Assembly (NCBI GenBank): GCA_030429765.1
Contig: JAUIER010000003.1
Location: forward strand, 80,402-144,401
Length of the DNA stretch: 64,000 bases
Direction: 5' to 3'
From: a bacterium
GTDB taxonomy: Bacteria > Omnitrophota > Gorgyraeia > Zapsychrales > Zapsychraceae
Positions 475 through 64,000 of the stretch are shown one piece after another. The position numbers and the translations under genes were made by a program. Each line of letters begins with the position of its first letter. The stretch's first letter is position 1. Below the pieces are notes generated by a model. It was not told where the DNA came from, did not search any database, and saw only the letters and a program-made list of their open reading frames with translations.

Positions 475-489
475 TCAGGAGAGAAGTGC

Positions 490-2583
490 ATGCGCGTTCT
501 ACAGATTTTACCCGAGCTCAATGTCGGGGGTGTAGAAACCGGAACCGTGGATTTTGCCGCCTACCTGGTTAACCACGGACACAAATCAGTGGTGATCTCT
601 AACGGCGGATCGATGGTTGAACGCCTGGAGGCGGAAGGATCCCGGCACTATCAGCTGCCAGTTCATCGCAAATCTTTTTTTACGGTCAGAAAAATGATCC
701 GGGCGGTCCGTGAGATTATCCGTCAGGAAAAGATTCAGATCGTACATGCCCGTTCGCGTATTCCGGCCTGGATCGCGTATTTTGCCTGCCGCAGCACGCG
801 AGCTTCCTTTATCACGACATGTCATGGATTTTATAGCAAGCCGATCTACAGTCAGGTGATGGGATGGCCCAAGCTGATCATTGTCCCGAGTGAGGTGATT
901 GCCCGGCATATGATCGAGACGTATAAAGTGTCGGCGGATCGTATTCGATGCATTCCGCGCAGTGTTGATCTCGAACGTTTCAAGGCGCCGCGTCGCCCGG
1001 AACGAAAGGACGGCAGCTGCACGATTGCGATTGTGGGGAGGATCACGGCCTTAAAAGGCCACACGTATTTTCTGCAGGCCATGGCCAAGGTTGTGCGGCA
1101 TATTCCTTATGCAAAGATATGGATTATCGGGGATGCGCCGAAAAAGAAATTGGCGTATCGAGAAGAATTGGAAACGCTGGTGAAACGATTGGGGTTGAGC
1201 CAGAATGTCGAGTTTTTGGGAAATCAACAGGATGTGCCGGGTTGTTTGAAGAAGGTTGATGTCCTGTGTTTCTCATCAACAGAGCCGGAATCATTCGGAC
1301 GCGCGATTGTCGAGGCGCAGGCGATGCGTGTTCCCGTTGTGGCCACGAGTGTGGGAGGCGTGGTGGATATTATTGAAGACGGACGAACCGGTTTTTTGGT
1401 GTTGCCCAAGGACCCGGACGCCATGGCGGACCGTGTGCTGAAGCTGGTGAACGATAAGGCGTTGGTCAAAAAGATGACCTCGGCGGCGCTCAAGAAGGTT
1501 CGGGAAAAGTATACCGTTGAACAGATGTCGGAGAGCACCCTGGCCGTCTACAAGGAGCTGCGGCGTTCATTTAATATACTCGTCATCAAGATCAGTTCGA
1601 TAGGTGATGTTGTCCTGGTGACGGCCTCCTTGAAGGCGCTCCGTGCAAAATTTCCTAAGTCGCCCATCAGTGTGTTTGTCGGACGGGAGTCCCGACGGAT
1701 ACTGGCCCAATGCCCGTATGTCGATGAAATAATTCCGTTCGATCACAAAGGCAAGCAAAAAGGATATCTGGAGCTGTGGCGGATGGGAAAGAAACTGCGC
1801 CGCATGCATTTCGACAAGGTTGTCGATTTTCAGAACAATCGAAAAAGTCATTTGCTGAGTTTTCTGACCATGGCCCCAGAAGCCTATGGATTTGACAATA
1901 AGAAATGGTCCCGGCTGCTGACCAATCCATTGAAGGATTATCGCAACGATATCCCGGCCGTGGAACATCAGTTTCAAATACTCAAGCGGTTGGGAATTGA
2001 ATATGATGACGATGTCCGGCTTGAACTGTGGCCGACAAAGACAGACGATGAGCATGTGCAGAAATTATTGGACCAGGAGTGGCTGGGCAACGCCAAGCAA
2101 ATCGTGGGGATAAATGTGTCGGCTTCCGAAAAATGGCCGAGTAAAAACTGGCCGGTTGAACACATTGTTGAGCTGTGTGACCGATTGGGGGCAGAGAATA
2201 TCAGAGTGGTGCTAACAGGTATGAAAAAGGATCGCGAAGTGGCCAAGGCGGTAAACACCAAGGCCAAGTCACGCCCGGCGAATCTCGCCGGACAGACGGA
2301 TATGATGCAGCTCGCGGCCCTGGTCCGTCGCTGTAATGTCTTTGTCACGCCGGATTCCGCGCCGCTGCATGTCTCGGCGGCCGTGGAGACACCTGTTGTG
2401 GCCTTATTCGGTCCGACTGATTCTGCACGTCATGTGCCGCCGGCCGATCAAATCAAGGTGTTGGAGACGCGTCCGGAATGCGCGCCATGCTACAGCGGGC
2501 AATGCCGTGTGAAAACGCATGTCTGCATGAAAGAAATCACCGTCGACGATGTCTATCGTGAGATTAAAAAATTAATGGCCTGA
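490..2583 (+). CDS. Bifunctional glycosyltransferase: N-terminal GT4 (family-1 fold) domain fused to a C-terminal GT9 (heptosyltransferase-family) domain.
   Basis: Residues 1-~355 carry GT4 hallmarks (MRVLQILPELNVGGVE..., E-x7-E region ESFGRAIVEAQAMRVPVVATSVGGVVDIIEDGRTGFLV). Residues ~360-697 carry GT9 hallmarks (ILVIKISSIGDVVL..., C-terminal DSAPLHVSAAVETPVVALFGPTD). Confidence 0.8.
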   Translation: MRVLQILPELNVGGVETGTVDFAAYLVNHGHKSVVISNGGSMVERLEAEGSRHYQLPVHRKSFFTVRKMIRAVREIIRQEKIQIVHARSRIPAWIAYFACRSTRASFITTCHGFYSKPIYSQVMGWPKLIIVPSEVIARHMIETYKVSADRIRCIPRSVDLERFKAPRRPERKDGSCTIAIVGRITALKGHTYFLQAMAKVVRHIPYAKIWIIGDAPKKKLAYREELETLVKRLGLSQNVEFLGNQQDVPGCLKKVDVLCFSSTEPESFGRAIVEAQAMRVPVVATSVGGVVDIIEDGRTGFLVLPKDPDAMADRVLKLVNDKALVKKMTSAALKKVREKYTVEQMSESTLAVYKELRRSFNILVIKISSIGDVVLVTASLKALRAKFPKSPISVFVGRESRRILAQCPYVDEIIPFDHKGKQKGYLELWRMGKKLRRMHFDKVVDFQNNRKSHLLSFLTMAPEAYGFDNKKWSRLLTNPLKDYRNDIPAVEHQFQILKRLGIEYDDDVRLELWPTKTDDEHVQKLLDQEWLGNAKQIVGINVSASEKWPSKNWPVEHIVELCDRLGAENIRVVLTGMKKDREVAKAVNTKAKSRPANLAGQTDMMQLAALVRRCNVFVTPDSAPLHVSAAVETPVVALFGPTDSARHVPPADQIKVLETRPECAPCYSGQCRVKTHVCMKEITVDDVYREIKKLMA

Positions 2584-2584
2584 T

Positions 2585-3679
2585 ATGAAGATATTGATAC
2601 TATCCACACACGTCAATACCGGCGGTATCACCAGTTATTTACTGACATTGTGCCAGGGCCTAATCAGGCAAGGGCATCAAATCTGGCTTGTGTCGAGCGG
2701 CGGCGATTGCGAGTCACGGTTTACGTCGATGGGGGTGACGATGATCCAGATGGATATTCGGACCAAGTCGGACTTGAGTCCAAAGATTTACGCGGCGGCT
2801 CCTAGGATTCGTCAATTGGTTGTCGATAACGGTATCGACATTCTCCACGCGCAGACGCGTGTCACCCAGGTGCTGGCGCGGCTGGTTCAGCGCTCAACGC
2901 AATGTGTGTATGTAGCCACCTGTCATGGATATTTCAAACGCCGCCTGAATCGACGCATCGCACCGTGCTGGGGTGATATGACCATCGCGATCAGCACCGC
3001 CGTGTATGAACATTTACTGGATGATTTTGAACTGGTCAGCGAACGTGTGTGCCTGATCGAGAATGGTATTGACACCGAGTATTATGCGCCGCTCTGTGAT
3101 GAACGCAAATCTCAGCAACGTCAGGCACTGGGACTTGATAACAGGAGGGTCGTCGGGACAATCGCGCGCCTCTCGGATGTCAAAGGGATCGATATTTTGA
3201 TCGAAGCCATGCCGCAGATTATGGATGCCGTTCCGGATGTGCATTGTGCCATCTTTGGACAAGGCAAAGAAGACGCCCCGCTTAAGGCGCTATGCCGTTC
3301 CCGGGGATTAGAGGACCGGATCACATTTTTTGACACGGTCAATGATACGGTGCAGTCTATGGGCGCGATCGATGTGTTTGTCATGCCCTCCCGACAGGAA
3401 GGATTAGGGTTGTCGGTGATGGAGGCACAATCCTGCGGTTGTCCGGTGGTGGCGACCAATGTCGGAGGTCTGCCGAGCCTTGTGATCGACGGACAAACAG
3501 GATTGCTTATTGAACCCGAGAGTCCGGAGGCGGTGGCGAATGCCGTGATCAAGCTGTTTAAAGATGACGATCTGTCCCAACGTCTCAGCGATAACGGACG
3601 GGATTTTATCCAAGCCAAATTTTCGGCCCGAGGGATGGTCGATAAAACGGCCGACTTGTATGCGAGGCTTTGCGCGTAA
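2585..3679 (+). CDS. Glycosyltransferase family 4 (group 1).
   Basis: MKILILSTHVNTGGITSYL... and EGLGLSVMEAQSCGCPVVATNVGGLPSLVIDGQTGLL. The start is coupled to the upstream stop (TGATATG). Confidence 0.85.
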   Translation: MKILILSTHVNTGGITSYLLTLCQGLIRQGHQIWLVSSGGDCESRFTSMGVTMIQMDIRTKSDLSPKIYAAAPRIRQLVVDNGIDILHAQTRVTQVLARLVQRSTQCVYVATCHGYFKRRLNRRIAPCWGDMTIAISTAVYEHLLDDFELVSERVCLIENGIDTEYYAPLCDERKSQQRQALGLDNRRVVGTIARLSDVKGIDILIEAMPQIMDAVPDVHCAIFGQGKEDAPLKALCRSRGLEDRITFFDTVNDTVQSMGAIDVFVMPSRQEGLGLSVMEAQSCGCPVVATNVGGLPSLVIDGQTGLLIEPESPEAVANAVIKLFKDDDLSQRLSDNGRDFIQAKFSARGMVDKTADLYARLCA

Positions 3680-3680
3680 C

Positions 3681-4703
3681 ATGAAAAATCTACTGGTGGT
3701 GAATGTTAACTGGTTAGGGGATGTGATTTTTTCCTCGCCTGTCTTTCGAGCGTTAAGAAAGTCATACCCTGACGCGCGAATCAGTTGTCTGGCCGTGCCG
3801 CGTGTGCGTGAGATCCTCGAATCCATTCAGGAGATTGATGACATCATCATCTATGACGAGGATGGACGTGACCGCAATCTGCTGTCCAAGTTTAGAATGG
3901 TGGGACGGCTGCGTCGGGAAAATTTTGATGCTGTCTTTTTACTATCGAAATCACGTTCACGCGCGTCGATGATGAAGTTGGCCGGCATTCCGGTCCGCGT
4001 GGGGTATGAAAATAAGAATCGAGGTCGCCTGTTGTCACATATTGCCGCGGGAGATGTGAACAGCATGCATCGAAGTGATTATTATCTAGGCGTTATTGAA
4101 GCGTTTGGTGTGGCTGTGGAAGATCGGAGCACCATCCTTGAAGCACGGGAGGAAGATTGTCACACAGTTCAACAAATGCTTAGCGATCAAGGACGTGATC
4201 CGTCGAAAAAATTGATTGCTCTCAACCCGGGGGGGAATTGGGATCTGAAGCGATGGCCGGCCGAAAATTTTGCGCGGCTCGCGGAACGTTTGAGTACCGA
4301 CAAGGAATTACAATTGGTCTTTACCGGCGCGGATAAAGATCGACCGCTGGTGGAGGATATTTTTCGGACAGCTAGTTTCGAAAGTAAGCCGATCAAACTA
4401 ACCGGACAGATGACTTTAAAGCAGCTGACGGCCTTGATGACATGTCTGGATGTCTTTGTCACCGCAGACTCAGGGCCGCTTCACATGGCCACAAGCGTTG
4501 GGTGCCCGACCGTGAGCGTCTTTGGGCCGACACGTCCGGAAATCACTGGTCCTCGCGGCACGGGACAAAATGTCACACTTCAGAAGGATGTCGGGTGCAA
4601 TCGCCGGGCCTGTTATCACTTGGAATGCCGAAACAATATCTGCATGCAGGCCGTAACCGTTGAGAACGTATATGAAGCCATTAAATCCATCCAGGATTCG
4701 TAG
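3681..4703 (+). CDS. Glycosyltransferase family 9 (ADP-heptose:LPS heptosyltransferase family).
   Basis: MKNLLVVNVNWLGDVIFSSPVFRALRKSYPDARI...DSGPLHMATSVGCPTVSVFGPT. The ORF-track start at 3564 overlaps the upstream gene. The ATG at 3681, immediately after the upstream stop, is the likelier start. Confidence 0.8.
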   Translation: MKNLLVVNVNWLGDVIFSSPVFRALRKSYPDARISCLAVPRVREILESIQEIDDIIIYDEDGRDRNLLSKFRMVGRLRRENFDAVFLLSKSRSRASMMKLAGIPVRVGYENKNRGRLLSHIAAGDVNSMHRSDYYLGVIEAFGVAVEDRSTILEAREEDCHTVQQMLSDQGRDPSKKLIALNPGGNWDLKRWPAENFARLAERLSTDKELQLVFTGADKDRPLVEDIFRTASFESKPIKLTGQMTLKQLTALMTCLDVFVTADSGPLHMATSVGCPTVSVFGPTRPEITGPRGTGQNVTLQKDVGCNRRACYHLECRNNICMQAVTVENVYEAIKSIQDS

Positions 4704-5664
4704 AATTCTGATTATTTCATTGTCGAATATCGGTGATGTGATCTTGACGCTGCCGGTTGCTGATATATTACGCCGTGATTTCCCGGACGCGAAAATCTCG
4801 ATTGTCGTCGGGCCCAAGGTGAAGTCGTTGTTTAAGAATACGCAGGCCTTTGAACATGTGATCCCCTACAATAAACATCAATCTGTCGGCGAGAAGTTTA
4901 AGTGGATCATGAAACTGCGCAAATACCGATTTGATCTGGTGGTGGACTTGAGAAACTCGGCGATTCCATTTTTACTGTCACCCAAATATCGAACGCCTGT
5001 GGATATTTCATCCAAAAAATCCATACATATGCGGCTCAAGCATCTGAAGCGATTACGAACAGTTCATCCATTTACCGATGATCGTGCGCAGCCCCAAAGT
5101 CTTTACGTCTCAGACGACGACCGGCAGTTTGTGGATGAGACGTTGGAAAAATATGTGGGAGCGTCCAAACCTTTCGTGGTGATGTCGCCTGGATCAGCCG
5201 ATCAGGCCAAGCGCTGGTCCAAGAAGGGATTCGCCGAGGTTGCTGAATTCCTGACGCAGGAACACGGATTAAAAACCGTCTTCGTCGGTGATCGGGAGGA
5301 TCGGCAGGTTGTGCAGGCGATACGCAAACTTATGGACAGCGAACCGGTGGATTTATGCGGCCGCACGACGCTGATTCAAACAGCCGAGATTGTCCGTCGC
5401 AGCCGGATGGCTTTGGTCAACGATAGCGCTGTGCAACATTTGGCCAGTTATCTGGATGTGCCGGTGTTGGCCATTTTTGGCTATACCGATCCGCTCAAGT
5501 ATGGACCGTGGGGAACCCGCGGCGGATATCTGCAACCCCATGGCGTGGCCGGCAAAACTGAAGGGACGACCGAGGAGCGCGTGGCCTTAATCGAGAGTGT
5601 TCGGCCGGCGGATGTGATCCGCTGCATACAAATGCGCGAATCGGGTGTCAGGTTTTTGTTATGA
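4672..5664 (+). CDS. Glycosyltransferase family 9 (heptosyltransferase family).
   Basis: RILIISLSNIGDVILTLPVADILRRDFPDAKI...NDSAVQHLASYLDVPVLAIFGYTDP. The start is either the TTG at 4660 or the ATG at 4672. Confidence 0.75.
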   Translation: MKPLNPSRIRRILIISLSNIGDVILTLPVADILRRDFPDAKISIVVGPKVKSLFKNTQAFEHVIPYNKHQSVGEKFKWIMKLRKYRFDLVVDLRNSAIPFLLSPKYRTPVDISSKKSIHMRLKHLKRLRTVHPFTDDRAQPQSLYVSDDDRQFVDETLEKYVGASKPFVVMSPGSADQAKRWSKKGFAEVAEFLTQEHGLKTVFVGDREDRQVVQAIRKLMDSEPVDLCGRTTLIQTAEIVRRSRMALVNDSAVQHLASYLDVPVLAIFGYTDPLKYGPWGTRGGYLQPHGVAGKTEGTTEERVALIESVRPADVIRCIQMRESGVRFLL

Positions 5665-6707
5665 CGCAGACGTTCAAGAATATTTTAATCATCCGGACGG
5701 ATCGTATCGGAGATGTGGTCCTGACAACACCATCGATCAAGGCGGTGCGAAAGGCCTATCCCGACGCTCGACTGTGTGTTCTGCTGGCACCTTTAACCTA
5801 TGATCTGCTAAACGGGATTGGTTTTGTCGACCGGCTATTCGTCGATGATCGACGGGGAGAGCACGCGGGAAATCTAGGTTTTTTCAAATTGGTCCGAAAA
5901 ATTCGACGGGAACGATTTGACCTGGTGATTAATTATCACACCAAGAAGCGTACAAATTTGATGGCGTTTCTGGCGGGCGTTCCGTACCGGTTGGGTTATC
6001 GCAACAACAAATGGGGCTTTTTATTGAATCATCCCGTCGAAGATTATCGTCATGAAGGTTTAAAGCACGAGGCCGCCTACTGTTTAGACCTGCTTAATGA
6101 GATCGGCATCAGCGATGCTGAATTAACTCCCGAAATCGCCTTGCTCGACGAATCCGTGGCCTGGGTCGATGATTTTCTGGGGCTTAACCAGATTGACGCG
6201 GGGGACAAGCTGATCGTGATTCATCCGTCGGCCAGCGATCCGGCCAAACAGTGGCCCGCCGAAAATTTTGTTGAACTGATCAACACCCTGGGAACGCGCA
6301 ACGCCGAACTCAAATTTGCCGTGATTGGAACGGCGGCCAATAGATCGCTGGCTGCTTCGATCGTCAAAGGCACCCGGCCGAAGGTGCTCGACACCACGGG
6401 TCTGCTGTCACTTAGCCAGATGGTCGCGCTCCTCAAGCGGGCCGATCTGCTGATATCCAATGATTCAGGGCCGGTTCATGTGGCCGCCGCCCTTCAAACA
6501 CCGGTGATATCCATCTTTACCCGGAATCAACCCGGGATCAATCCCACACGTTGGCAACCGCTTGGAGAGAGGTCGGCGTACGTAAGTGTTGATGCCGATC
6601 ACTCCAAATCCTTCAAAAAAGCCCAGAATTACGACCCAAAATCCATGCAACCGATTGCCGTTCAGACGGTTTTGCAAGCAGTTGACGCCCTTTGTAAACT
6701 ATGCTAG
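5661..6707 (+). CDS. Glycosyltransferase family 9 (heptosyltransferase family).
   Basis: NILIIRTDRIGDVVLTTPSIKAVRKAYPDARL...NDSGPVHVAAALQTPVISIFTRNQP. The start codon overlaps the upstream stop (ATGA). Confidence 0.8.
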   Translation: MTQTFKNILIIRTDRIGDVVLTTPSIKAVRKAYPDARLCVLLAPLTYDLLNGIGFVDRLFVDDRRGEHAGNLGFFKLVRKIRRERFDLVINYHTKKRTNLMAFLAGVPYRLGYRNNKWGFLLNHPVEDYRHEGLKHEAAYCLDLLNEIGISDAELTPEIALLDESVAWVDDFLGLNQIDAGDKLIVIHPSASDPAKQWPAENFVELINTLGTRNAELKFAVIGTAANRSLAASIVKGTRPKVLDTTGLLSLSQMVALLKRADLLISNDSGPVHVAAALQTPVISIFTRNQPGINPTRWQPLGERSAYVSVDADHSKSFKKAQNYDPKSMQPIAVQTVLQAVDALCKLC

Positions 6708-6769
6708 AATCGTTAGTTTCTTCATATCTAAATACCTAATTTTATTATAAATACTAGTAGCGCAAGCAG

Positions 6770-7798
6770 ATGAGCACCTTCAGGACAATTCTATCCAAGT
6801 TTAATCAGCAATCAATTCTCGTCGTTGGAGATTTAATCCTCGATCAGTACCTCCAGGGGTCGGTCAGCCGGATTTCGCCTGAGGCGCCGGTGCCGGTGGT
6901 TCTGCAGAAGAAGGCCTTCAACACTCCCGGCGGGGCGGCCAATGTGGCCAATAACCTGGCCGGACTCAAGGCCAAGGTCTCTATGCTCGGGATCGTGGGG
7001 GACGATGCCGAGGGGAAGTTGCTGGTCCAGTCCCTGAAGAAGAAAAAAATCCGTGTCCAGGCGATCTATACTGATTCCAATCGTCCAACCATCACCAAGA
7101 CGCGCGTGTTGGCTCAGAATCAGCAAATCGTGCGAATCGACAAAGAAGATATCGACAAGCCGATCCACAAAAACATCACCAAGAAATTGTTTGATTATCT
7201 GACTCGAAACATCGAGAAATTTGATGCGGTGATCCTGTCTGACTACGGCAAGGGACTGCTAACACCGGAATTGTCGCAGCATGCGGTCTCACTCGCGCTT
7301 AAGCATAAAAAAATTGTGACGGTTGATCCCAAGGTTGAGCATTTTGGTTACTATCGTCATGCGACGGCAATTACGCCGAACCTGGCCGAGACAGAGAATG
7401 CCATTCGCAGCATTAAAGTCACATCACCTCAACTATCCGCCAAGCTGGGCGTCGATTCGGATAAACTCAAAACTGATGAACAGATTGACCTGGCCGGCAA
7501 AGAGCTATTGAAATGTCTGGATCTTGATTCACTATTGGTTACATTGAGCGAACGCGGGATGCGGTTATTTGAACGCGGTAAAAAGCCGGTCTCCATCAAG
7601 ACCAAGGCCAAGGCCGTCTATGACGTGACCGGGGCGGGCGATGCGGTTATTTCAGTTTTTACATTGGCCATGGCCGCCGGGGCCACAAAACATCAGGCCG
7701 CCGATTTGTCGAATTTCGGCGCGGGTATCGTTGTTGGCAAGTTAGGGGCCGTCGCCCTCGAGAAGAAAGAACTGGCAGAGGCCGTTAAGGGACATTAG
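6770..7798 (+). CDS. hldA: D-glycero-beta-D-manno-heptose-7-phosphate kinase (HldE domain I only, ribokinase/PfkB family).
   Basis: ILVVGDLILDQY...SRISPEAPVPVV and the C-terminal DVTGAGDAVISVF motif. No adenylyltransferase domain is present in this ORF. Confidence 0.85.
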   Translation: MSTFRTILSKFNQQSILVVGDLILDQYLQGSVSRISPEAPVPVVLQKKAFNTPGGAANVANNLAGLKAKVSMLGIVGDDAEGKLLVQSLKKKKIRVQAIYTDSNRPTITKTRVLAQNQQIVRIDKEDIDKPIHKNITKKLFDYLTRNIEKFDAVILSDYGKGLLTPELSQHAVSLALKHKKIVTVDPKVEHFGYYRHATAITPNLAETENAIRSIKVTSPQLSAKLGVDSDKLKTDEQIDLAGKELLKCLDLDSLLVTLSERGMRLFERGKKPVSIKTKAKAVYDVTGAGDAVISVFTLAMAAGATKHQAADLSNFGAGIVVGKLGAVALEKKELAEAVKGH

Positions 7799-55537: not shown

Positions 55538-55659
55538 ATCCCCGCACACTATCTGTTTTGTATTGATCCGATGGATCGGTCCGTCGAGGTATCCCGGACT
55601 GTCCCGGACACATTTTTGAAGCATAGTTGAAAGCTACTCATTTGTAATGACTTACAGGC

Positions 55660-55689
55660 TTGTCCCCTGTGGATAACTATGTTATATTT
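55660..55689 (+). promoter_or_regulatory. Promoter candidate for the downstream structured RNA: -35 TTGTCC (55660-55665), 18-nt spacer, -10 TATATT (55684-55689).
   Basis: The predicted TSS (~55695) coincides with the first nucleotide of the 12-bp closing stem. Confidence 0.35.
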
Positions 55690-55694
55690 GAATT

Positions 55695-55978
55695 AAGCCG
55701 ATAAAGGTAAACCCGGGGAAACCCGGGGACTTTCGAGTCTTACCGACTTGGAACTGCGCGGTTATGAGGCGCGCGGACAAAACCAACAGACCTAAATTGT
55801 TAACGACTACGAGGCCCGTTCGGGCGTTCAGCGCCGGGGCACACAATCCAAGCAGAAGAGTCTAGGACAAGATGGTGGCTGGGTTGCCGAAGTGCGGTGA
55901 GGGAGACATCCTCATCTTTATCGGCTTATTTTTCTCTCTTACCCATACCGTAAAAACACCCGTTTTTGCGGTTTTTTT
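55695..55978 (+). ncRNA. Candidate structured small RNA of unknown class (~285 nt).
   Basis: A 12-nt 5' segment AAGCCGATAAAG (55695-55706) is perfectly complementary to CTTTATCGGCTT (55916-55927), enclosing 233 nt. Inside are the tandem repeat AAACCCGGGG x2 and several GC hairpins (GCCCG-TT-CGGGC, GGCG-TTCAG-CGCC). It ends in an intrinsic terminator (55948-55978). No ORF longer than 60 aa lies in it. It sits in a 570-bp non-coding gap at the boundary of a low-GC islet. Confidence 0.4.
55948..55978 (+). terminator. Rho-independent terminator: CCGTAAAAAC-ACCC-GTTTTTGCGG (one G.U pair) followed by TTTTTTT.
   Basis: 10-bp stem, 4-nt loop, 7-U tract, read directly from the sequence. Confidence 0.65.
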
Positions 55979-56105
55979 GTGTCTACGGTGTTGGTTCTGG
56001 TAGAATAGTAGGAATTAACTGCGCGGGGCTTCACGAACTTCCAATCCTGCAGCAGTTTTTCCAGTGTGATTAAGCAAGCAAAATTAAGAAATATTTCGAT
56101 TGTAA

Positions 56106-56492
56106 ATGACTAACAATTCAATATTTTCATTTCCTCCTGATTTTGAAGTGGAGTATAAATTTTTGACAGTGGACGAGGCCGGTAGAAAAACTGGAACTCC
56201 CTTTCAGGGTTACCGGAGCAATTGGCTATATGAAGGGGATGACCCAATTGCCGACGGCATTTATATGATTCATCCTGAATTTCTGGATGAAGACGGAAAA
56301 AGTTTTCAAAAGAATAGGAAGGTTCCTGCAAAAGGCCTGGCCAGAATGGTAGTAGTCAATCCAGCTAAGAGACCTTATCATCAAAAGAAAATAAAAGTTG
56401 GAACAAGAGGTTTTTTTGTCGAGGGAAATCGGAAAGTGGCAATGGCAACCGTAACGAAGGTGCTTGGTTTGCATACCAATAAAACAACTTAG
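56106..56492 (+). CDS. Hypothetical protein (128 aa), encoded in a low-GC islet.
   Basis: Clean ORF with no recognisable motif. AT-rich codon usage unlike the neighbouring genes. Confidence 0.5.
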   Translation: MTNNSIFSFPPDFEVEYKFLTVDEAGRKTGTPFQGYRSNWLYEGDDPIADGIYMIHPEFLDEDGKSFQKNRKVPAKGLARMVVVNPAKRPYHQKKIKVGTRGFFVEGNRKVAMATVTKVLGLHTNKTT

Positions 56493-56542
56493 TAGAAAAT
56501 TCTCATTCCATAACAGGGATAGGATTTTTCAAAGATAATTGA

Positions 56543-57247
56543 ATGACGTATATTAGAATTTTTGCCTTGGTGCTTAGCGTTATTTTAACGGCCGGGTGTG
56601 CTACCGTTGTTCGGGATCAATTACCGGCAGTCCAAAAATTTTCGACATCTGAGGAAGCTTTCAGCGTATACGTGCTGAATCATGGATGGCATACAGGACT
56701 GGTGATCAGGCGTTCTGATATCCCTGACCATCTTTGTCCCGAAAGTGAAGATTTTGCTAAGTATGAGTATCTCGAAATTGGATGGGGCGATCAAGGTTTT
56801 TACCAGGCTCAGAAAATCACTTTGGGTATTACTATCCGGGCGATCTTTTGGCCGTCCAAAAGCGTACTACATGTGGTGGGATTTAATGGGTCAGTTGAGG
56901 CATATTTTGAAACCAGTGATATTGTACGAGTTGATCTTTCGGAACAGGGATTTAACAAAATATGCATGTTTATTCATGAAACGTTCAAGAGGGAGCAGGT
57001 TGATCTACGAGCTTCGTCTATCGGACCGGGTTTGTACGGGGATAGTAAATTCTACAGAGCTCGCGGGAGATACTACTTTCCTAAAACGTGTAATGTTTGG
57101 ACCGCAAGGGCCCTACGTAAAGGTGGTTGTCCGATAACACCTATTTACGCTGTGACATCCGGCAATACGCTGAATCAGACCAAGAAGTTTGGAGTAATTG
57201 TTAGGGAGTTCCTAGAGTCGTATAAAGCTTCAGGTAGAAAAAAATAA
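56543..57247 (+). CDS. Lipoprotein of the DUF2459/TIGR02117-like family (tentative).
   Basis: Lipobox LTAGC. Conserved-looking core YVLNHGWHTGLVI...EIGWGD. Low-GC like the preceding gene. Confidence 0.5.
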   Translation: MTYIRIFALVLSVILTAGCATVVRDQLPAVQKFSTSEEAFSVYVLNHGWHTGLVIRRSDIPDHLCPESEDFAKYEYLEIGWGDQGFYQAQKITLGITIRAIFWPSKSVLHVVGFNGSVEAYFETSDIVRVDLSEQGFNKICMFIHETFKREQVDLRASSIGPGLYGDSKFYRARGRYYFPKTCNVWTARALRKGGCPITPIYAVTSGNTLNQTKKFGVIVREFLESYKASGRKK

Positions 57248-57477
57248 GTGGATGGTCGAAGTCTCTCCAATCTTGAAAGAATTGGTATCAGAAATCCCTA
57301 AAGTAAAGCAGGGCATAAGTTTAGGTCGTAATTCATTATATTAGCGAAGAGGCCTGTCCCTTTTCGGGGACTGTCCCCTTTGGGGGAGCCGTTCGGGCTT
57401 GCCTATAATACTAATATATCGTATAATTAGTGTATTACTGGTTCCCCACCGTAAGCTTTAGTTTCCACCCATAGTCT

Positions 57478-60400
57478 ATGTTGATTTCAATCAAACGGCA
57501 TTTCCGTCATCCGTTGTTTTGCGCGTTGGTGTCGATGCTGACATGTCAGTTATCATTTGCTGTCCCTGGCGTTGCGTCTACGCAAGCCTCGCAGGGAGTG
57601 GCTCTGCCTGAACCCGGCACGCTGGTGATGCCGAGCGCCGATTTTTATGCCCCGGTCCTCAAAGGGGTTCAAATCCATCCCGACCAGCCGTTTCATTTTG
57701 AATTTATTGTCGATCAGGGCGATCAGTCGATTTCCTTAAGCCAACTGGAGGCCGAGTCGTATCGCTTGATCAAATATTTTATGGCCGCCCTGGCCGTGCC
57801 TGAGCAGGACATGTGGGTGAACTTATCGCCCAATGATCATGATCGGGCGATCCCCGACAAATTCGCCCTGACCGCTATGGGACGTGATCTGCTCGCGCAG
57901 GATTATCTGCTCAAACAATTATCGGCGTCGATGATGTATCCCGAACATCGGCTTGGTGAAGATTTCTGGCAACGCGTGCGGCACTTGGCCCATCAACGCT
58001 TGGGCGTGACCGACATTCCCGTCAACACATTCAATAAAGTCTGGATCGTACCCGAACGGGCCGTGGTGTATCAAGACGGATATACCGCGTATGTGTCCGA
58101 AGGCCGGCTCAAGGTCATGCTGCAGTCGGACTATCAAGCCAGCGCATCCAGCCCGATGGGCGCGGGCAATCCCGACGATTCCACCGACCGGTTAGCCCAG
58201 GACATTTATCGTGAAGTGATTATTCCGGAACTGGAGCGAGAGGTGAATACCGGTCGACAGTTTGCCCGTTTGCGCCAGATCTATCATTCGTTGATTCTCG
58301 CGACGTGGTATCGCGAAGTCCTTGAGGACAGTTTGATCAATCAAGTGTATGCCGGACAGAATAAGATCCATGGCATTGAGATCGACGATCCCCGGGCCAA
58401 AGACGCGATCTATCAGCAATACATGGACGCGTTTCGCAAGGGCGTCTACAACTACATCCGCGAAGACTATGATCAATTGAAGGATCAGGTGATCCCGCGG
58501 CAGTACATGTCGGGCGGGATGCAGATCGTGCCGCGGATAGAGATTACCGACGACGCGCGCTCCGTCCGCACGCGCGGAGATCTGGCGATGGTCTCCACGC
58601 AACTGAATCTGCGCGGTGCCAACCGCACGATTGAGATCGCGGCGGATCTCGACGACAGTATCTTTGCCGGGATGCGAAAGAACGGCCGGCCCAAGGTTCA
58701 GTTAACGCATGCGGATCACGCCGAGCTCAAGGGATACCGTCCGGATGGAGAGACGGTCACACTTTTTACCTCACTACGTCAGCGGGTATACGGCCTGGAA
58801 ATTTCCGATGAGGGCGAACTCACGCACGTTTATCCTAACAATAAAAAAGACAAACCGGTGGCTTGGGCCTGGATTCGTGACGACGCCGGCCGGCGGACCG
58901 GAATTGTCGTCGGAGACAAGCGGACGCACGCGTCGCTGGGATACGGAACAAGTGCGGTCAAGATTAACGGGTGGATCGACACGCCGATTATAGCAAGTCA
59001 GCAGCGGCAGGACGCGGCCTTGATCCGCATCGGTCCACAGGCCCTGGGTAAACGACAACTCTTTGCGGTGTTGCCGCCGGATGCGGCCGGCGAAACATTG
59101 GCGGTGCGCTATGAAGACGGTTTTCCGACGGCAGTTCGTCTGAGAGACGGGACCGTTGTTCCTGTTGGTCTGATCCGGAATCAGTATAATCAGGTGATCA
59201 AAGCCACGAACGGTTCGGCCGGTTTTGTTAAGCCGGATCGTGAGACAGCCACCAGCTACGAAAATATCCGAACGGATGCAGAGGGCATAGCGCGTTTGGG
59301 ATTCCGTCTCGAGCGAGTGGCCGACGGGGCCGGCTGGGCCAGTCTCCTGGTTGACCAATCAGTGGTGATCGCTCATGATATTTTTGATCAGCCGCGTCAC
59401 CAAACCTACGGACACGTGATCCGCAATCACCATGATGTCATCATTGCCGCCGCGTGGCGGGAACCCGACCAAGACCAACGGGAGGTAAACCCCAAGCCGT
59501 TGATGATCGTTCGCGATCTCCAAACACACCGGCCGAAGTACTCGGCGGCACCAACCAAATTCAAAGACACCGGCGACGCGATCGTGACCGGACGTCGTTT
59601 ATCGAAACACGGCAAGATTTATATCGGCGGACATTCGCTGAGTTTGGGGGCGACGTATGCCGATGCGCCGGTGGAATTGCTATGGCTGCCCAGCCAGGGT
59701 TATCTGCTGGTCGATGTCTTAAGTGAACGTGATCGTGAGGCGTTTGTGTTTGACTTGAATCGTGACGAAACCGTCACCGCCGAACAGCTAACTCTCGTCG
59801 ACAAATACCTGTCTGAGCTTGGGCTGGAATGGTATCTGGATCCGGCAGAGAAGGCGTATCGTTATGATCTCATCAATGAGTTGATGTCGGATCCGTTGTT
59901 CGCACAGCTGAATTTAAGATTATTTTCAACGCATCCGGCGGATTTACAGACCATTCAGTCTCAGTTGACTGTGCGCCGTCACATGCCGGTCAGGATTTGG
60001 GATCAGGCCCTGGATATCGCCGCCCGACGGATCGATCAATATAAACGCGATTATCCCGATCAGGTCGTCAACGGCAAGATTCCGATGCGGATCAAGCAGT
60101 CGATCATTCGCGATGTGTCGGACGAGGCCTGGTTGATGATCAATGCCGAACGTCCGCTGACGGAGAGCCCATCGGCTCAAATCTTTGAATCGTCGTCAAA
60201 CGAAACCGATGCGGCCATGACCAGCGATGGACCCACGCGGGCTGATATCGAACGGCTGTTCAAGGCGATTCTGGAAATTTACCGGTCCTACGCCGACGGT
60301 GAATTGGAGGACTATCCCACGGCGATGCGCCGGCTGGAGGCATTGGCCGAGCAGACCGCGTCGAATCCGGTCCTGCAGAGTTTTGTCCATGACCGGAAGA

Positions 60401-63400
60401 ATCCCATCCACGTGATTGAGTTCGGACTGGATGGTCAGTTGGTGGCGCGCGATAAGCTCGCGCAGTCCCTTCAGGATGACATCCGCGATATGGAGCTGGC
60501 CCTGGCCGGACTTCGATCGCTCGACGACACCGACCCCGCCCCGGTGACGGATGCGTATCCGGCCGAGATCAAATATTTTGAGTTAATCAATAAAGGACGC
60601 GGTTCGACGGATTCAGATGCCGCGATGGCGGGTATCGATACTTTTGTGGCTGAGCGGATCACACAATTGCAGGACGCGGTGACGGAACGTGAACAGGTGA
60701 CACCCAACACGGTTCGGCATGTCGCGGGGCTTTGGCTAAAAGCCCTCATCCAGGAGTGGGATTACGGCCGGAACATCGTTCACACACGGGCCGAGGCCGT
60801 CGAGATAGGGGAACGCCTGAACCGGGCGTGGAAGGCCGCCGGGTTCGACAAGGTTCGTTCATGGCCGGCGCAGGTGATGCTCATGGGCTCTCTGCAGGTT
60901 TCGGAAGACAAGTACTTTCAATTTGAAGATATGCAGGAGGCCTTGATCGAACATGCCACGCGGGAGGAAAAGATCTTGGCTTACTGGACCAAGGCGGTGC
61001 GCTCTGTCAGTCATCTCAGATATTACGGCAATCATCCGGAAGATGAATTTGAGGATCCGCTCGTCGATCAAACCGTCATTCAGGATACGGCGCGCAAATA
61101 CATCACCTTGCTGCTGGAAGACGCGCCCGAGAAGGCCACTCAAGATCAGCTGTGGGGATTGATCGTTTTGCTCGATCCGTTCATCTATCATCCTGACTTT
61201 TTAATTGATCAGTGGGCCAAGCATGCCTATAAGCAACCCAACGATCATGTCATGACCGCCAAGGTCCTCGACATTCTGAAGGATCTCAACGCGGAACAGC
61301 GGCAGCGATTCCAACAACTCGCCCGACGGGCGTTTGCGATATCGGATGACGAATGGGCGGCGGCTGGATTCCGGTCGCCGTACACAGACTTTATCATCCA
61401 TACCTTTAATGAACGACTGGACCACATGATGACTCAGATGTCGATCAAGTCCTCGAGTGAGTTCAGCGGGGATCACGTGCAGCTGATGGCCCGGTCCGAA
61501 GAATTTTTCGACGCCCATGTGGGATGGTATGCCTTAACGCGCGATCCCAGGGCGGTGCGCGAGATGATGTTCTCCAATAAACGGCATGCCCGTTATCCGG
61601 AGGCCGGTTTTCTGGGGCTGCGTCAGGCCATCGTCAAACGGCGATTGTTCAAGGCGATGGAACAAGATCCGCGGCATTACTATCGACGGGTCTTCGCGCA
61701 TCCATTGCTGGCGGATTCACCTAACTGGGGATTTTTAAGTGAGTTGTTGAGCGACGAGGCGATGATGGCCGATCCCGATGATATGACCGAACAGTTCCGT
61801 CGACGAATTGATCTAGCCATTGCTCAGGTGGGTTATCCTGGAATATCTGTATCCGAACAGGCTGCTCAAGATTTGCTTGCTGACTATGAACAGGGTTTTG
61901 ACGTGACGGAACGGATTGCCATTCCACGGATCAGCGTCTGGCTGATGCGTCACCAGATTCCTGTGTTTCAGTCTTATGAAATGCTAGCGGCCATCCACGT
62001 CGCCGCCGACAAGTGGCGAGCCAATTTCAATCAGACAGTGGAGCTTGAGGTTGGTGCCTTGATGAGCTTTACGAATGTGGTGGGGCTACCGATGTTTGGA
62101 TTTGAAGGATCGTGGACAGATGCGGAAGTGCAGACCGTTCGACGGATTATGGGGTGGTTGGATGGGGAAAAAGTCTCTACATTGAAAGGGTTGCAAGCTC
62201 GATTGTTGACATCTTCGGTAACATTTAAAAAGCGCGGCAGGGGATTCAGAGGCATTGCGGAGATCATACAAGGGATCATGCCGGCCGGTCCCCGTATACC
62301 TGGCGATAGACGCACAAACGCGATTCAGCTCGTCGACATTGATACAAGCTGGTTTACAGGGAATATCACATTCCCGATGATTCAGATTCTCAAGGAATTA
62401 TTGCTGGATCGGACGCAGGACAAGGATGTCATTGATGAAGACTACTTTGACTCACGAATTGCGGTGTTGGCCAAGATACAAGAGTTGTTAGAGCGGCTTG
62501 TCCTTCGGGAGCAGTCATTAATTGAAAACTTTGCGACAGCCTATCGCGCGCAATTGCAGGAAGAGCGTAGAACGTTGTTGTATACATGGCTGACCATGAT
62601 GCGCGGTGACGAAGAAATTTTAGATCTGGAACCTGATGATTTGTCGCACAGATTTACACTTTCAACGGATGATGTTTTGAAGGTATTAAGAGATTACTCT
62701 GAAGAGATCGATGACCGAGATCACGCGATGAAAGCCGGTGAGGCGTTTGAGAACAATCCGTATCATGAACCGCATTTTGATCTGATTGACAATCTGGAAC
62801 TGGCCGAGCGGTCGAATATCGTGATGATCGGGGCGGCGGAAAATCCGCAGGCCGGTTTGGCCTTCGCGATGCGCGGACATCATGTCAGGTCCATCACCAA
62901 GGATATCAAGGGGCCGACCGTGGAGGCGGCGCTGCAGGAGTCACTTGAGGCCGATATTTCCGGTCGGGGCGGACGGTATGTCACCAATCGGGAGACCGAC
63001 TATCTGGATGTCGACATCGACGCCGAATCGGTGGATGTGTATGTGGTGCCGGCGGTGCTCGACGATCCGCGCACCGTGCAGCAGGATTTGATGCTGGATA
63101 AAATGCTGCGCGAATTGCGGCCGGGCGGTCATCTGGTGCTGTCGTTTATCATCAATGCGTCGGGATGGGAGCGCTATGTCGAGCGGTTCGCGGCGTCACG
63201 CGGGTTTGAACTGGAGAAGACGTATGATTATACCGTGTCGGACGCGGCGGTGATCTATCGCGTTGTGCCGGATGCGGCCAGACAGCTGGCCGCCATGGCG
63301 TCGGAGATCGGCGCGGCCAATGATGAGGCCATGCTGGCGTTCAGTGAGTTTGACAACAAGATCGGGATCGATCCATTTTCCGGTCGTTTATCGGTGCTGT

Positions 63401-64000
63401 CCGATGAGCCGGTGTTTGTGCCGGCGTTTGAGTTATGGGCGGTGCGTCACGGTGAGACCGCCGGTAATGTTCAGCGCATCTTTCAAGGGGCGACGGACAC
63501 GTCGATCAATCAGTTGAATCAACGCGGACGCGAGCAGGCCGCAGAAGCGGCGCGCCTGATGTTTGAACAGCTCGAGGCCAAACTCAGGGCCGGTGATCAC
63601 GTTGTTATATTGACCAGTGAGTTCGCGCGGGCGAAAGAGACGGCGCAGGCCTTTGTGGATTTTGTTGAGGCTCAATTGGGGGATGCATCGAACTTAACCA
63701 TCGTCGAAGATGCCGGGGTCAATGAGATTGATTTCGGCGAACTCAACAATCTGTCCGAACAGGATGAGTTAACGGATCGTCAGCGCACGTTTATCGATCA
63801 GTATCGGTATCAGAAAAACGCGCGCGCGAAACCGGCCGGCGGCGAAAGCTATCTGGAATTGACCCAGCGGGTCCACCGATGGCTCAAAGAATTGAATCAG
63901 CGCTACGCGGACCAAACCGTGGTGATGTTTGGTCACGGTACATTTTTATCGGCCGTTCGGATGTTGACGGGGGATACGTCGATGAACGACGCCAGCGGTC
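57478..64000 (+). CDS. Giant multidomain protein, 3'-truncated by the window (at least 2174 codons). It has an N-terminal Sec-type signal peptide. Near the C-terminal end of the window it carries a class-I SAM-methyltransferase-like segment (~aa 1780-1925) and a histidine-phosphatase/PGAM-superfamily domain (~aa 1980-2174+).
   Basis: Frame 1 was checked codon by codon from the ATG at 57478 (preceded by an in-frame TAG at 57472-57474) to nt 64000, and no stop codon occurs. Signal peptide: MLISIKRHFRHPLFCALVSMLTCQLSFAVPGVASTQA. MTase-like motifs: VMIGAAENPQAG...SITKD, VDVYVVPAVLDD, LRPGGHLVL. Phosphatase signature: ELWAVRHGETAGN, TSEFARAKETA, EIDFGELNNLS, VVMFGHGTFL. It is missing from the ORF track only because no stop lies within the window. 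Confidence 0.8.
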   Translation, partial: MLISIKRHFRHPLFCALVSMLTCQLSFAVPGVASTQASQGVALPEPGTLVMPSADFYAPVLKGVQIHPDQPFHFEFIVDQGDQSISLSQLEAESYRLIKYFMAALAVPEQDMWVNLSPNDHDRAIPDKFALTAMGRDLLAQDYLLKQLSASMMYPEHRLGEDFWQRVRHLAHQRLGVTDIPVNTFNKVWIVPERAVVYQDGYTAYVSEGRLKVMLQSDYQASASSPMGAGNPDDSTDRLAQDIYREVIIPELEREVNTGRQFARLRQIYHSLILATWYREVLEDSLINQVYAGQNKIHGIEIDDPRAKDAIYQQYMDAFRKGVYNYIREDYDQLKDQVIPRQYMSGGMQIVPRIEITDDARSVRTRGDLAMVSTQLNLRGANRTIEIAADLDDSIFAGMRKNGRPKVQLTHADHAELKGYRPDGETVTLFTSLRQRVYGLEISDEGELTHVYPNNKKDKPVAWAWIRDDAGRRTGIVVGDKRTHASLGYGTSAVKINGWIDTPIIASQQRQDAALIRIGPQALGKRQLFAVLPPDAAGETLAVRYEDGFPTAVRLRDGTVVPVGLIRNQYNQVIKATNGSAGFVKPDRETATSYENIRTDAEGIARLGFRLERVADGAGWASLLVDQSVVIAHDIFDQPRHQTYGHVIRNHHDVIIAAAWREPDQDQREVNPKPLMIVRDLQTHRPKYSAAPTKFKDTGDAIVTGRRLSKHGKIYIGGHSLSLGATYADAPVELLWLPSQGYLLVDVLSERDREAFVFDLNRDETVTAEQLTLVDKYLSELGLEWYLDPAEKAYRYDLINELMSDPLFAQLNLRLFSTHPADLQTIQSQLTVRRHMPVRIWDQALDIAARRIDQYKRDYPDQVVNGKIPMRIKQSIIRDVSDEAWLMINAERPLTESPSAQIFESSSNETDAAMTSDGPTRADIERLFKAILEIYRSYADGELEDYPTAMRRLEALAEQTASNPVLQSFVHDRKNPIHVIEFGLDGQLVARDKLAQSLQDDIRDMELALAGLRSLDDTDPAPVTDAYPAEIKYFELINKGRGSTDSDAAMAGIDTFVAERITQLQDAVTEREQVTPNTVRHVAGLWLKALIQEWDYGRNIVHTRAEAVEIGERLNRAWKAAGFDKVRSWPAQVMLMGSLQVSEDKYFQFEDMQEALIEHATREEKILAYWTKAVRSVSHLRYYGNHPEDEFEDPLVDQTVIQDTARKYITLLLEDAPEKATQDQLWGLIVLLDPFIYHPDFLIDQWAKHAYKQPNDHVMTAKVLDILKDLNAEQRQRFQQLARRAFAISDDEWAAAGFRSPYTDFIIHTFNERLDHMMTQMSIKSSSEFSGDHVQLMARSEEFFDAHVGWYALTRDPRAVREMMFSNKRHARYPEAGFLGLRQAIVKRRLFKAMEQDPRHYYRRVFAHPLLADSPNWGFLSELLSDEAMMADPDDMTEQFRRRIDLAIAQVGYPGISVSEQAAQDLLADYEQGFDVTERIAIPRISVWLMRHQIPVFQSYEMLAAIHVAADKWRANFNQTVELEVGALMSFTNVVGLPMFGFEGSWTDAEVQTVRRIMGWLDGEKVSTLKGLQARLLTSSVTFKKRGRGFRGIAEIIQGIMPAGPRIPGDRRTNAIQLVDIDTSWFTGNITFPMIQILKELLLDRTQDKDVIDEDYFDSRIAVLAKIQELLERLVLREQSLIENFATAYRAQLQEERRTLLYTWLTMMRGDEEILDLEPDDLSHRFTLSTDDVLKVLRDYSEEIDDRDHAMKAGEAFENNPYHEPHFDLIDNLELAERSNIVMIGAAENPQAGLAFAMRGHHVRSITKDIKGPTVEAALQESLEADISGRGGRYVTNRETDYLDVDIDAESVDVYVVPAVLDDPRTVQQDLMLDKMLRELRPGGHLVLSFIINASGWERYVERFAASRGFELEKTYDYTVSDAAVIYRVVPDAARQLAAMASEIGAANDEAMLAFSEFDNKIGIDPFSGRLSVLSDEPVFVPAFELWAVRHGETAGNVQRIFQGATDTSINQLNQRGREQAAEAARLMFEQLEAKLRAGDHVVILTSEFARAKETAQAFVDFVEAQLGDASNLTIVEDAGVNEIDFGELNNLSEQDELTDRQRTFIDQYRYQKNARAKPAGGESYLELTQRVHRWLKELNQRYADQTVVMFGHGTFLSAVRMLTGDTSMNDASG

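Follow-up and report, generated by a model that had tools for sequence, protein, structure and literature searches.

A 2,263-residue modular protein with a predicted Sec leader represents a large, unnamed Omnitrophota family sharing a head, a tail and a junction motif

The Omnitrophota are widespread, uncultivated nanobacteria thought to be predators or parasites, a lifestyle that has been proposed for them in print (PMC10066038). They are known for giant proteins, described as 'Archaeovorin-type' or 'multi-enzyme metabolic cluster', which measure 10,000–147,000 amino acids (aa), carry many transmembrane (TM) helices and are often encoded beside loci resembling type II secretion systems or type IV pili (10.1101/2023.11.21.568195; 10.64898/2026.06.07.730766; PMC10066038). 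Of these giants 94% bear a leader or a TM segment, and their enzyme repertoire is the same as the one met below (10.64898/2026.06.07.730766). The published sets comprise genes of more than 20–30 kb or proteins of at least 10,000 aa, the N-terminal regions are stated to lack identifiable domains, and the puzzle the papers leave is that cytoplasm-type enzymes sit on chains predicted to be exported. Here we describe a smaller relative, encoded on the forward strand at the end of a 64,000-nucleotide stretch of an Omnitrophota genome (contig JAUIER010000003.1, positions 80,402 to 144,401; the whole stretch is called the window). Its family shares with the giants the host phylum, the presence of methyltransferase, NUDIX, GNAT, HATPase, radical S-adenosylmethionine (SAM), HEAT, kinase and phosphatase modules on one chain, a common N-terminal leader and a proposed role in predation or symbiosis. 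In contrast to the giants, the long protein has only 2,263 aa, one leader, no internal TM segment by Kyte–Doolittle analysis and housekeeping neighbours. We propose, with a probability of roughly 0.55, that the family is an exported carrier of enzyme cargo acting outside the producer's cytoplasm, built from a constant head and tail, interchangeable modules and junction peptides.

By sequence comparison, the long protein is a member of a very large, unnamed, multi-copy family of modular, predicted exported proteins that is restricted to Omnitrophota. More than 2,500 large proteins emerged from a homology search, all relatives coming from Omnitrophota metagenome-assembled genomes (MAGs); their likeness to the long protein is confined to about its first 350 residues, at 43–55% identity. 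The profile of this N-terminal region that was used for the family searches (A1) scored 532 bits (E 1e-161) on the long open reading frame (ORF), found a single copy and matched no other ORF of the window. It retrieved 8,367 representatives of 50%-identity clusters at E ≤ 1e-3, 6,792 of them at E ≤ 1e-30; the match always begins within the first ~50 residues (~2–49), and members range from 420 to 4,969 aa. Species-representative genomes contain at least 596 family loci, all in Omnitrophota, while single MAGs contain four to six within the top 80 and tandem family genes are present at 10 of 51 well-flanked loci. An earlier note, which had been made from the letters of this DNA, called the architecture highly unusual; within Omnitrophota this does not hold, as more than 8,000 protein clusters share it, with several copies per genome. 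The same note rightly said that giant exported proteins have been reported in certain candidate phyla, the host phylum being known for them. Among 2.9 million viral contigs the family was found at three loci (L087–L089, uncultivated viral genomes, UViGs, of IMG/VR); these contigs, classed as viral, are probably cellular contigs or prophage-flanking DNA. At loci L008, L009, L011, L012, L014 and others (ENA records CAY.. and CAZ..) many MAGs are titled 'uncultured Planctomycetales bacterium', and single family matches are labelled Desulfobulbaceae or Lysobacterales, such labels being probably taxonomic mislabels or binning errors.

The gene and the parts of its product are arranged as follows.

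57478..64000, + strand: coding sequence, codons 1–2174 of 2263; the last 89 codons and the TAG stop lie outside the window, and the full gene is at positions 123–6914 of locus L002.
57478..57588, + strand: predicted Sec-type signal peptide, aa 1–37, with basic n-region KRHFRH, hydrophobic core and a heuristic cleavage site between TQA and S, placed by alignment with the family pattern AxA before Q.
57589..58578, + strand: family N-terminal domain (N-domain), aa 38–367, with motifs LPxPGxMV, HPDxPFxFxF, WVNLSP, MGRDLLAQDY.LKQ, NTFNKVWIVPE, LRQIYHSLILATWY and PRxY(F/M)SGG.
58579..58590, + strand: junction D-L-A-M, aa 368–371.
58591..60207, + strand: module 1, aa 372–910, function not assigned; homologous blocks stand elsewhere in the family proteins P0003, P0009 and P0010.
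60208..60219, + strand: junction D-A-A-M, aa 911–914.
60220..60615, + strand: module 2, aa 915–1046, function not assigned.
60616..60627, + strand: junction D-A-A-M, aa 1047–1050.
60628..61752, + strand: module 3, aa 1051–1425, function not assigned; found once or twice in P0002–P0005.
61753..61764, + strand: junction D-E-A-M, aa 1426–1429.
61765..62718, + strand: module 4, aa 1430–1747, function not assigned; a DUF488-N3a match below threshold (aa 1641–1709) is its only lead.
62719..62730, + strand: junction D-H-A-M, aa 1748–1751.
62731..63321, + strand: module 5, aa 1752–1948, methyltransferase-fold-like, with a degenerate SAM-binding loop.
63322..63333, + strand: junction D-E-A-M, aa 1949–1952.
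63334..64000, + strand: module 6, histidine phosphatase branch 1, aa 1953–2193, cut by the window edge at aa 2174; RHGE at nucleotides 63445–63456 and H2153 at 63934–63936.
Outside the window: junction D-T-A-M (aa 2194–2197), then the 66-aa tail GGIDF...DGLVPVILDIRPINVLPLFVARE (aa 2198–2263 of the public protein P0001).

Analysis of the head of the protein indicated a leader followed by the most conserved part of the family. A Kyte–Doolittle scan found hydrophobic segments only in the leader (aa 12–33) and in the tail (aa 2242–2261), and the Sec signal that had been read from the letters stands, the putative cleavage point TQA37/S38 aligning with the AxA-then-Gln sites of relatives. The combination of a basic n-region, a hydrophobic core, an AxA site and no second TM segment predicts Sec export of the whole chain. 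Leaders of at least 25 aa, available for 224 members, have a strongly hydrophobic core in 219 cases and Lys or Arg before it in 221, and the commonest sequence directly before the N-domain is A-x-A followed by Gln (AQA then Q, AYA then Q). The N-domain itself comprises ~330 aa with ~50% identity across the phylum; its alignment contains 54 invariant columns, including WVNLSP, GRD..L.QDY.LKQ, NK.W..P, E.N....LRQ.Y and the final GG, as well as Ser117 and Lys146/Lys187. AlphaFold2 modelled it as a mixed alpha/beta fold (predicted local distance difference test, pLDDT, 76; predicted template modelling score, pTM, 0.76). No match was obtained with the N-domain profile against the PDB, Foldseek against the PDB gave a best E of 0.25 (TM-score ~0.1), and nothing significant appeared among viral structure predictions. 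Nor does any Pfam or NCBIfam model describe it: Pfam scans of 29 N-domains at E ≤ 10 yielded scattered noise only (DUF896 in 7 of the 29, best E 8e-4). It had been said that about 1,750 residues of the product have no recognisable motif. This holds in that no Pfam family matches aa 1–1640 at E ≤ 1, but the region opens with this highly conserved N-domain.

Beyond the N-domain, the chain is divided by a short motif, D-x-A-M. Seven such sites (aa 368, 911, 1047, 1426, 1748, 1949 and 2194), of which six lie in the window where 0.5 would be expected, split the long protein into head, six modules and tail, and their positions match the limits of the BLAST blocks that it has in common with other members. 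Across the first 120 family proteins, 311 sites were observed against 25 ± 5 expected; in the variable regions of 226 proteins the count was 430 against 34 (~12-fold), and the extended form D-x-A-M-[LIVT]-[AGST] occurred 170 times against 1.4 (~120-fold). As D-x-A-[ILVQ] showed no enrichment in the variable regions of the family, Met is required in the junction, which is typically preceded by a small residue and followed by a hydrophobic and then a small one. The first site usually lies directly after the N-domain (aa 323–410 in 60 of 120 proteins), and the last one 5–30 aa before the GGIDL start of the tail. Outside the family the motif shows no enrichment: the remaining 50 proteins encoded in the window have 2 sites where 2.2 are expected, and there is no excess in 422 ORFs that neighbour family genes without belonging to the family. 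In the DNA, conservation is limited to those codon positions that the motif itself constrains, third positions vary and the flanks are unconserved; the varying third positions, together with the rarity of an upstream ribosome-binding site (RBS), argue that D-x-A-M is selected at the protein level. Internal translation starts and a DNA recombination site were rejected as explanations, as only 9 of 127 sites are preceded by an RBS-like sequence and flanking nucleotides are not conserved, and the Bacteroidetes-type O-glycosylation sequon D-(S/T)-(A/I/L/V/M/T) was discarded, since Ser and Thr are not over-represented at position x. In a subset of members (e.g. P0041, P0045, P0057, P0093, P0110; L043) another junction motif, (S/T)-S-P-(I/V/L/A), is ten-fold enriched (179 against 18), and 39 proteins contain both.

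The strictness of Asp, Ala and Met may be more typical of a recognition or cleavage site than of a simple hinge. This would suit a refinement of the proposed export of cargo in which the chain is a polyprotein: the precursor would be cut at D-x-A-M or SSPφ, for example between Ala and Met, by a Ser-Lys-type peptidase, possibly the N-domain (Ser117, Lys146/Lys187), and the enzymes would be freed after export. In favour of processing are the placement of the motif exactly at module borders and at both ends of the cargo region, its enrichment and family specificity, the need for Met and the selection at the protein level. Moreover, in the AlphaFold2 model the DLAM strand that follows the N-domain packs on that domain (pLDDT 86–89), which raises the possibility that the head is the processing enzyme. 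Proteolytic processing has already been proposed for the giant relatives by West-Roberts et al. (bioRxiv 10.1101/2023.11.21.568195). Against it, 28% of the members have no D-x-A-M, no peptidase fold was detected in the N-domain, and the type of junction did not map to polar changes in the N-domain. On balance we regard cleavage into free enzymes as possible, though doubtful.

The tail follows the consensus GGIDL(N/T)..., ~35 variable residues, G(F/L)xPVIINIxPxxxLPxLLG and then 0–35 polar residues, and stands at the C-terminus of 193 of 242 family proteins and of 43 of the 58 complete ORFs of the genomic loci. It combines prolines inside a hydrophobic stretch with an acidic or polar end; AlphaFold2, given a 55-sequence alignment, predicted no secondary structure (pLDDT 72, pTM 0.24), and no curated sorting-signal model (CTD, x-CTERM) of Pfam or NCBIfam matches. 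It is thereby unlike the C-terminal sorting signals of the T9SS, exosortase or rhombosortase type, which have a folded Ig-like CTD or else a motif, a TM helix and a basic end. An extended, conserved and fold-less segment of this kind fits the expectation for a peptide that some partner recognises or that acquires its fold on one. In many members LPxLLG is followed by a short acidic stretch and an extreme C-terminus of the form E-L-S-x-(L/V/M)-(N/D) or ...(S/A)-(V/I)-L, an extension that the query lacks. A few small proteins consist of the tail alone or of leader plus tail (P0280, P0274, P0310, P0345); P0310, of 80 aa (L085 669–911, L086 640–882), occurs on 13 contigs beside a tetratricopeptide repeat (TPR) protein and a peptidoglycan-binding protein. 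They might act as competitors or adaptors, or be remnants. When the tail profile was searched, it matched mainly fragments at the edges of contigs.

Between the constant ends, each member carries one to many modules, drawn from a broad set and standing in differing orders and positions. Pfam domains past the N-terminal region include methyltransferases, His_Phos, NUDIX, GNAT, radical SAM with a B12-binding domain, HATPase_c, receiver and helix-turn-helix domains, as well as PP2C, protein kinases, ABC1, M48 peptidase, HEAT repeats, MutS and DprA, and further NDK, PGK, pyruvate kinase, transketolase, LpxC and acyl-CoA dehydrogenase. The smallest complete members with head and tail have ~745 aa, with one ~320-aa module between. 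A DnaJ J-domain lies inside a full family member of 1,047 aa, encoded by an intact ORF at L084 5319–8462 (JADFZK010000032.1), of which the public annotation covers no more than the final 153 aa ('J domain-containing protein'), leaving ~3.2 kb geneless. The record P0323, which would represent a standalone cytoplasmic protein of J-domain plus tail, was rejected as a gene-calling artefact of this ORF, and family genes may be under-annotated in MAG records.

In the long protein itself, modules 1, 3 and 4 found no match in PDB sequence searches. Module 5 had been noted as a methyltransferase-like segment, a reading that the sequence supports only weakly. A five-sequence profile of the module searched against the PDB gave as its five best matches phospho(methyl)ethanolamine N-methyltransferases, all class-I methyltransferases, aligned in register (E 0.03–0.09), the best four covering most of the module. 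All scores are nevertheless sub-threshold (Methyltransf_11 16.1 bits against a cut-off of 21.2; Anamorsin_N 16.2 against 27.1), the motif I position reads MIGAAENPQAG (GSAETPQLG in homologues) instead of E/DxGxGxG, and an hhalign comparison with the genuine methyltransferase modules found elsewhere in the family gave a probability of 3%. The sequence thus suggests a relative of the methyltransferase fold in which SAM binding is doubtful. By comparison, the histidine phosphatase recognised in module 6 from its RHGE and second His was fully supported: His_Phos_1 (PF00300), the only Pfam match to the long protein that is more than faint, covers aa 1986–2161 at 100.3 bits (cut-off 21.7; E 1.4e-28), with R1990–E1993 and H2153-G in place. 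Across 24 phosphatase modules of the family the catalytic RHG is conserved, as are the acidic residue and the second His (HG), the R and both H at ≥90% each, and with these residues intact module 6 is probably an active phosphatase or mutase. The NCBIfam equivalogs CobC, dPGM, PspA and SixA all scored far under their cut-offs on it (best CobC, 68.7 against 162.9). In partner proteins the phosphatase module sits anywhere from residue 397 to 2220 and usually ends in ...PNAxPxxL..D-x-A-M or a near variant.

The long frame is a complete, native gene of 2,263 codons of an Omnitrophota bacterium. Translation of frame 1 (+ strand) from the ATG at 57478 to 64000 gave 2,174 codons and zero stops, as previously read; given its base composition, stops should occur about once in ~24 codons, and such an open run would arise by chance with a probability of ~1e-41. 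An in-frame TAG at 57472–57474, two codons before this ATG, makes it the earliest possible start, and the antisense ORFs opposite the gene are, as had been suspected, short by-products. The public protein P0001, recorded from an NCBI genome, has 2,263 aa and is 100% identical across all 2,174 residues in the window, which places the stop 89 codons past the window edge, and the complete gene, with the C-terminal end ...LPLFVARE-TAG, is also present in two independent Logan assemblies (SRR24442552 and ERR3428548). Hence the earlier note's multi-kilobase giant, whose true length it held to be not known, is reduced to the outcome that it had itself named as less exceptional, with the phosphatase as the last enzyme module and a stop close downstream. 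The GC content at third codon positions (GC3) is 0.635, equal to that of the housekeeping genes polA, rho, prfA, murA, trpD and infB in the window (0.60–0.66), which argues that the gene is native and has not been imported recently.

We also considered that the frame might be an artefact, namely a misassembly, an error-driven read-through of several genes or a decaying pseudogene. The short-read assemblies are indeed broken on both flanks: the Logan assemblies end ~120 nucleotides upstream and ~220 nucleotides downstream of the gene, and the Logan contigs containing the upstream neighbour (13 kb) and P0001 (7 kb) both stop at a flanking repeat. The elements concerned, with a promoter match, are the following.

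57284..57348, + strand: upstream copy of a ~65-nucleotide repeat, ~130 nucleotides 5' of the gene, with core GCAGGGCATAAnTTTAGGTCGTAATTCATTATATTAGCGA.
57399..57427, + strand: sigma-70-like promoter match TTGCCT-17-TATAAT (10/12), a consensus match only, ~50 nucleotides before the start codon.
L002 7071–7135: downstream copy of the ~65-nucleotide repeat (~90% identity), running to the contig end, ~160 nucleotides 3' of the gene.

This bracketing repeat, of which no further copy was found in the 64-kb window or in the JGI metagenome contigs, accounts for the breaks on both sides. The same 2,263-aa product in the NCBI genome and the two Logan assemblies, that is, an identical full gene in three independent assemblies, makes a chimera unlikely, and the minute chance of such an open frame, the head–modules–tail architecture common to thousands of relatives and the intact catalytic residues render an artefact exceedingly improbable. 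Behind the downstream repeat copy there may lie a tandem paralogue whose 5' region is the same.

The proposed carrier would work as follows. Guided by its leader, the chain would pass via Sec into the periplasm of a diderm cell. Head and tail, the constant parts, would be address or attachment devices for shared machinery or a scaffold; the head is far more conserved than the cargo and the tail lacks structure, so that both look like contacts with something common, be it an outer-membrane or surface step, a scaffold or each other. The modules would be cargo working outside the producer's cytoplasm, most likely on or in a partner or prey cell: cargo that needs SAM, ATP, Fe-S assembly, DNA or Hsp70 has no obvious periplasmic use, which points to action in the cytoplasm of another cell, in agreement with the predatory or parasitic lifestyle proposed for Omnitrophota (PMC10066038), with a published effector reading of their giant proteins (PMC12419801) and with the finding that RNA of an Omnitrophota predator reaches prey cells (PMC13153191). 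The junction peptides would serve as hinges and perhaps also as cleavage sites freeing the modules.

Several points weigh against this proposal. The predicted export rests on sequence rules and family conservation, all support being computational. No secretion, sorting, transporter or protease gene was found to be conserved beside family genes, the genes that recur there being paralogues and two-component regulators. Many modules, among them glycolytic enzymes, pyruvate kinase and glutamate dehydrogenase, resemble plain metabolism, not weapons, and radical SAM or SAM/ATP-dependent enzymes exported by Sec would be idle in the periplasm. D-x-A-M is absent from 34 of the first 120 proteins, N-domain residues differ between junction types only in weak, conservative, clade-like ways, and the presence of the tail on the small proteins without an N-domain indicates that head and tail are no obligate pair.

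Some of the same observations fit a protein that stays with its producer, in the inner membrane, the periplasm or a coat, and co-localises enzymes for the cell's own metabolism or envelope, head and tail anchoring it or assembling it, head-to-tail or in dockerin fashion, on a larger scaffold such as the giants. Many modules are of housekeeping type (PGK, pyruvate kinase, NDK, PGI-like, phosphomannomutase), the tail, extended and conserved, is of the partner-folding kind and also occurs on small leader-plus-tail proteins, and the gene, native in codon usage, lies among housekeeping genes at a position kept in a second genome. A giant protein of V. archaeovorus has, moreover, been proposed to form a coat (PMC10066038). 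Yet ATP-, SAM-, Hsp70- and DNA-dependent modules would have no obvious supply of substrate outside the cytoplasm, where the predicted leader topology (basic N-terminal end, AxA, no second TM segment) would put the bulk of the chain, and no receptor or scaffold partner was identified. We judge such a resident scaffold to be rather unlikely, though a serious rival to the exported carrier.

Returning to the exported carrier, its most far-reaching form would make head, tail and D-x-A-M a hitherto unrecognised, phylum-wide Omnitrophota delivery system that carries arbitrary cytoplasm-type enzymes (methyltransferases, phosphatases, kinases, radical SAM enzymes, J-domains, DNA-binding domains) over the envelope and into or onto partner or prey cells, with the chain cut at the junctions, possibly by the N-domain acting as a new Ser-Lys-type peptidase, and thus serving as a bacterial effector polyprotein, and the same grammar may underlie the giants of 10–150 kaa. 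We put this extended form forward tentatively and think it improbable as a whole.

Several described systems resemble the family in part. The MARTX toxins of Vibrio have swappable effector domains between conserved termini, released by cleavage at short inter-domain sites; they use type I secretion without a Sec leader and contain glycine-rich repeats and an internal cysteine protease domain. The likeness, a works-like analogy, lies in the mosaic between constant ends, whereas the long protein has a Sec-type leader and no Pfam or NCBIfam match to MARTX-type repeats or cysteine protease. CdiA/TpsA polymorphic toxins have a Sec leader, an N-terminal two-partner secretion (TPS) domain and variable C-terminal cargo marked by a motif such as VENN, in many paralogues, the TPS domain being a beta-helix with a Pfam model and a TpsB partner gene. 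For the family no TPS fold, model or TpsB neighbour was found, its cargo consists of several enzymes rather than of one toxin with an immunity gene, and the junction is not conserved at the DNA level. Crinkler (CRN) effectors of oomycetes combine a signal peptide, an N-terminal trafficking domain ending in a junction motif and recombining enzymatic C-terminal modules in large paralogous families; they are alike in leader, head, junction and diverse modules, but are eukaryotic, unrelated in sequence, limited to a single C-terminal module and devoid of a conserved tail. The polyvalent proteins of phages and conjugative elements, discussed by Iyer et al. in 2017, are reportedly very long chains of enzymatic domains (methylases, ADP-ribosyltransferases (ARTs), peptidases) thought to be delivered and processed. 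PF18760, which we take to be the ART-PolyVal family, is present in some family members; however, polyvalent proteins reside on mobile elements and have no Sec leaders, whereas genes of the family are native to the chromosome and hardly occur on viral contigs. Lastly, cargo of the type IX secretion system (T9SS) with its C-terminal domain (CTD), gingipain polyproteins and cellulosomal dockerin enzymes are unrelated exported enzymes that share a C-terminal addressing module, and gingipains are cleaved between domains. Those modules are folded and have library models, unlike the family tail, which has neither a model match nor a predicted fold. As every one of these systems failed on a defining feature, the likenesses to MARTX, CdiA/TpsA, CRN, polyvalent and T9SS/dockerin proteins are analogies only.

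The literature searched on Omnitrophota giants makes no mention of a shared head, tail or junction motif. Multi-enzyme chains predicted to be exported are already known in the phylum, and as far as the libraries and papers searched show, what is new is the grammar of the family, with its conserved head, tail and junction motif. The earlier note had pointed to this gene as a likely place for something undescribed, and in this respect it was right, while its example of a contact-delivered multienzyme is a hypothesis.

The surroundings of the gene are ordinary. For comparison with the giants and their type II secretion- and type IV pilus-like and PilZ neighbours, the 57 kb upstream contain housekeeping genes only, downstream sequence being covered to 220 nucleotides. 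The other window genes, on the + strand, encode IF-2, Tgt, RNase HII, FolD, PolA, GlgA, CoaE, Rho, L31, RF1, PrmC, MurA, TrpG/D/C/F and a lipopolysaccharide (LPS) heptosyltransferase fusion, and no tRNA or Rfam element was found in the window. The fusion (490–2583, 697 aa) joins GT4-type glycosyltransferase domains to a GT9 heptosyltransferase domain, and its role in LPS core synthesis indicates an outer membrane in the host. In isolate HKST-UBA13 (L004) a family gene with another module order occupies the syntenic position after RF1–PrmC–MurA–TrpG–TrpD. Directly upstream of the long gene, positions 55538–57477 (ORFs 56106–56492 and 56543–57247) have a G+C content of 0.45 against ~0.51; a DUF2459 gene there has a GC3 of 0.40 against 0.60–0.66 in its neighbours, and a 128-aa ORF has no Pfam match. 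The low G+C and the low GC3 of the DUF2459 gene suggest that foreign DNA has entered the interval separating the long gene from the trp genes. All plausible genes of the 64 kb lie on the + strand, the GC skew is everywhere positive and its cumulative curve climbs monotonically, an unusually long co-directional run within one replichore.

Apart from its basic interest, the long protein may prove a useful entry point to these bacteria, as a relative of 2.3 kaa is small enough to clone and its grammar is common to more than 8,000 protein clusters. The grammar offers experimental handles, namely the head as an export, anchor or peptidase domain, cleavage at D-x-A-M and the binding partner of the tail, and for annotation it supplies two domain models that are new, along with a rule by which such proteins can be divided into modules. 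If the grammar is a lineage-specific scaffold only, what is gained is a useful definition of an unnamed family and no new principle. Otherwise, the head, tail and junction handles could make the function of the whole class, giants included, testable.

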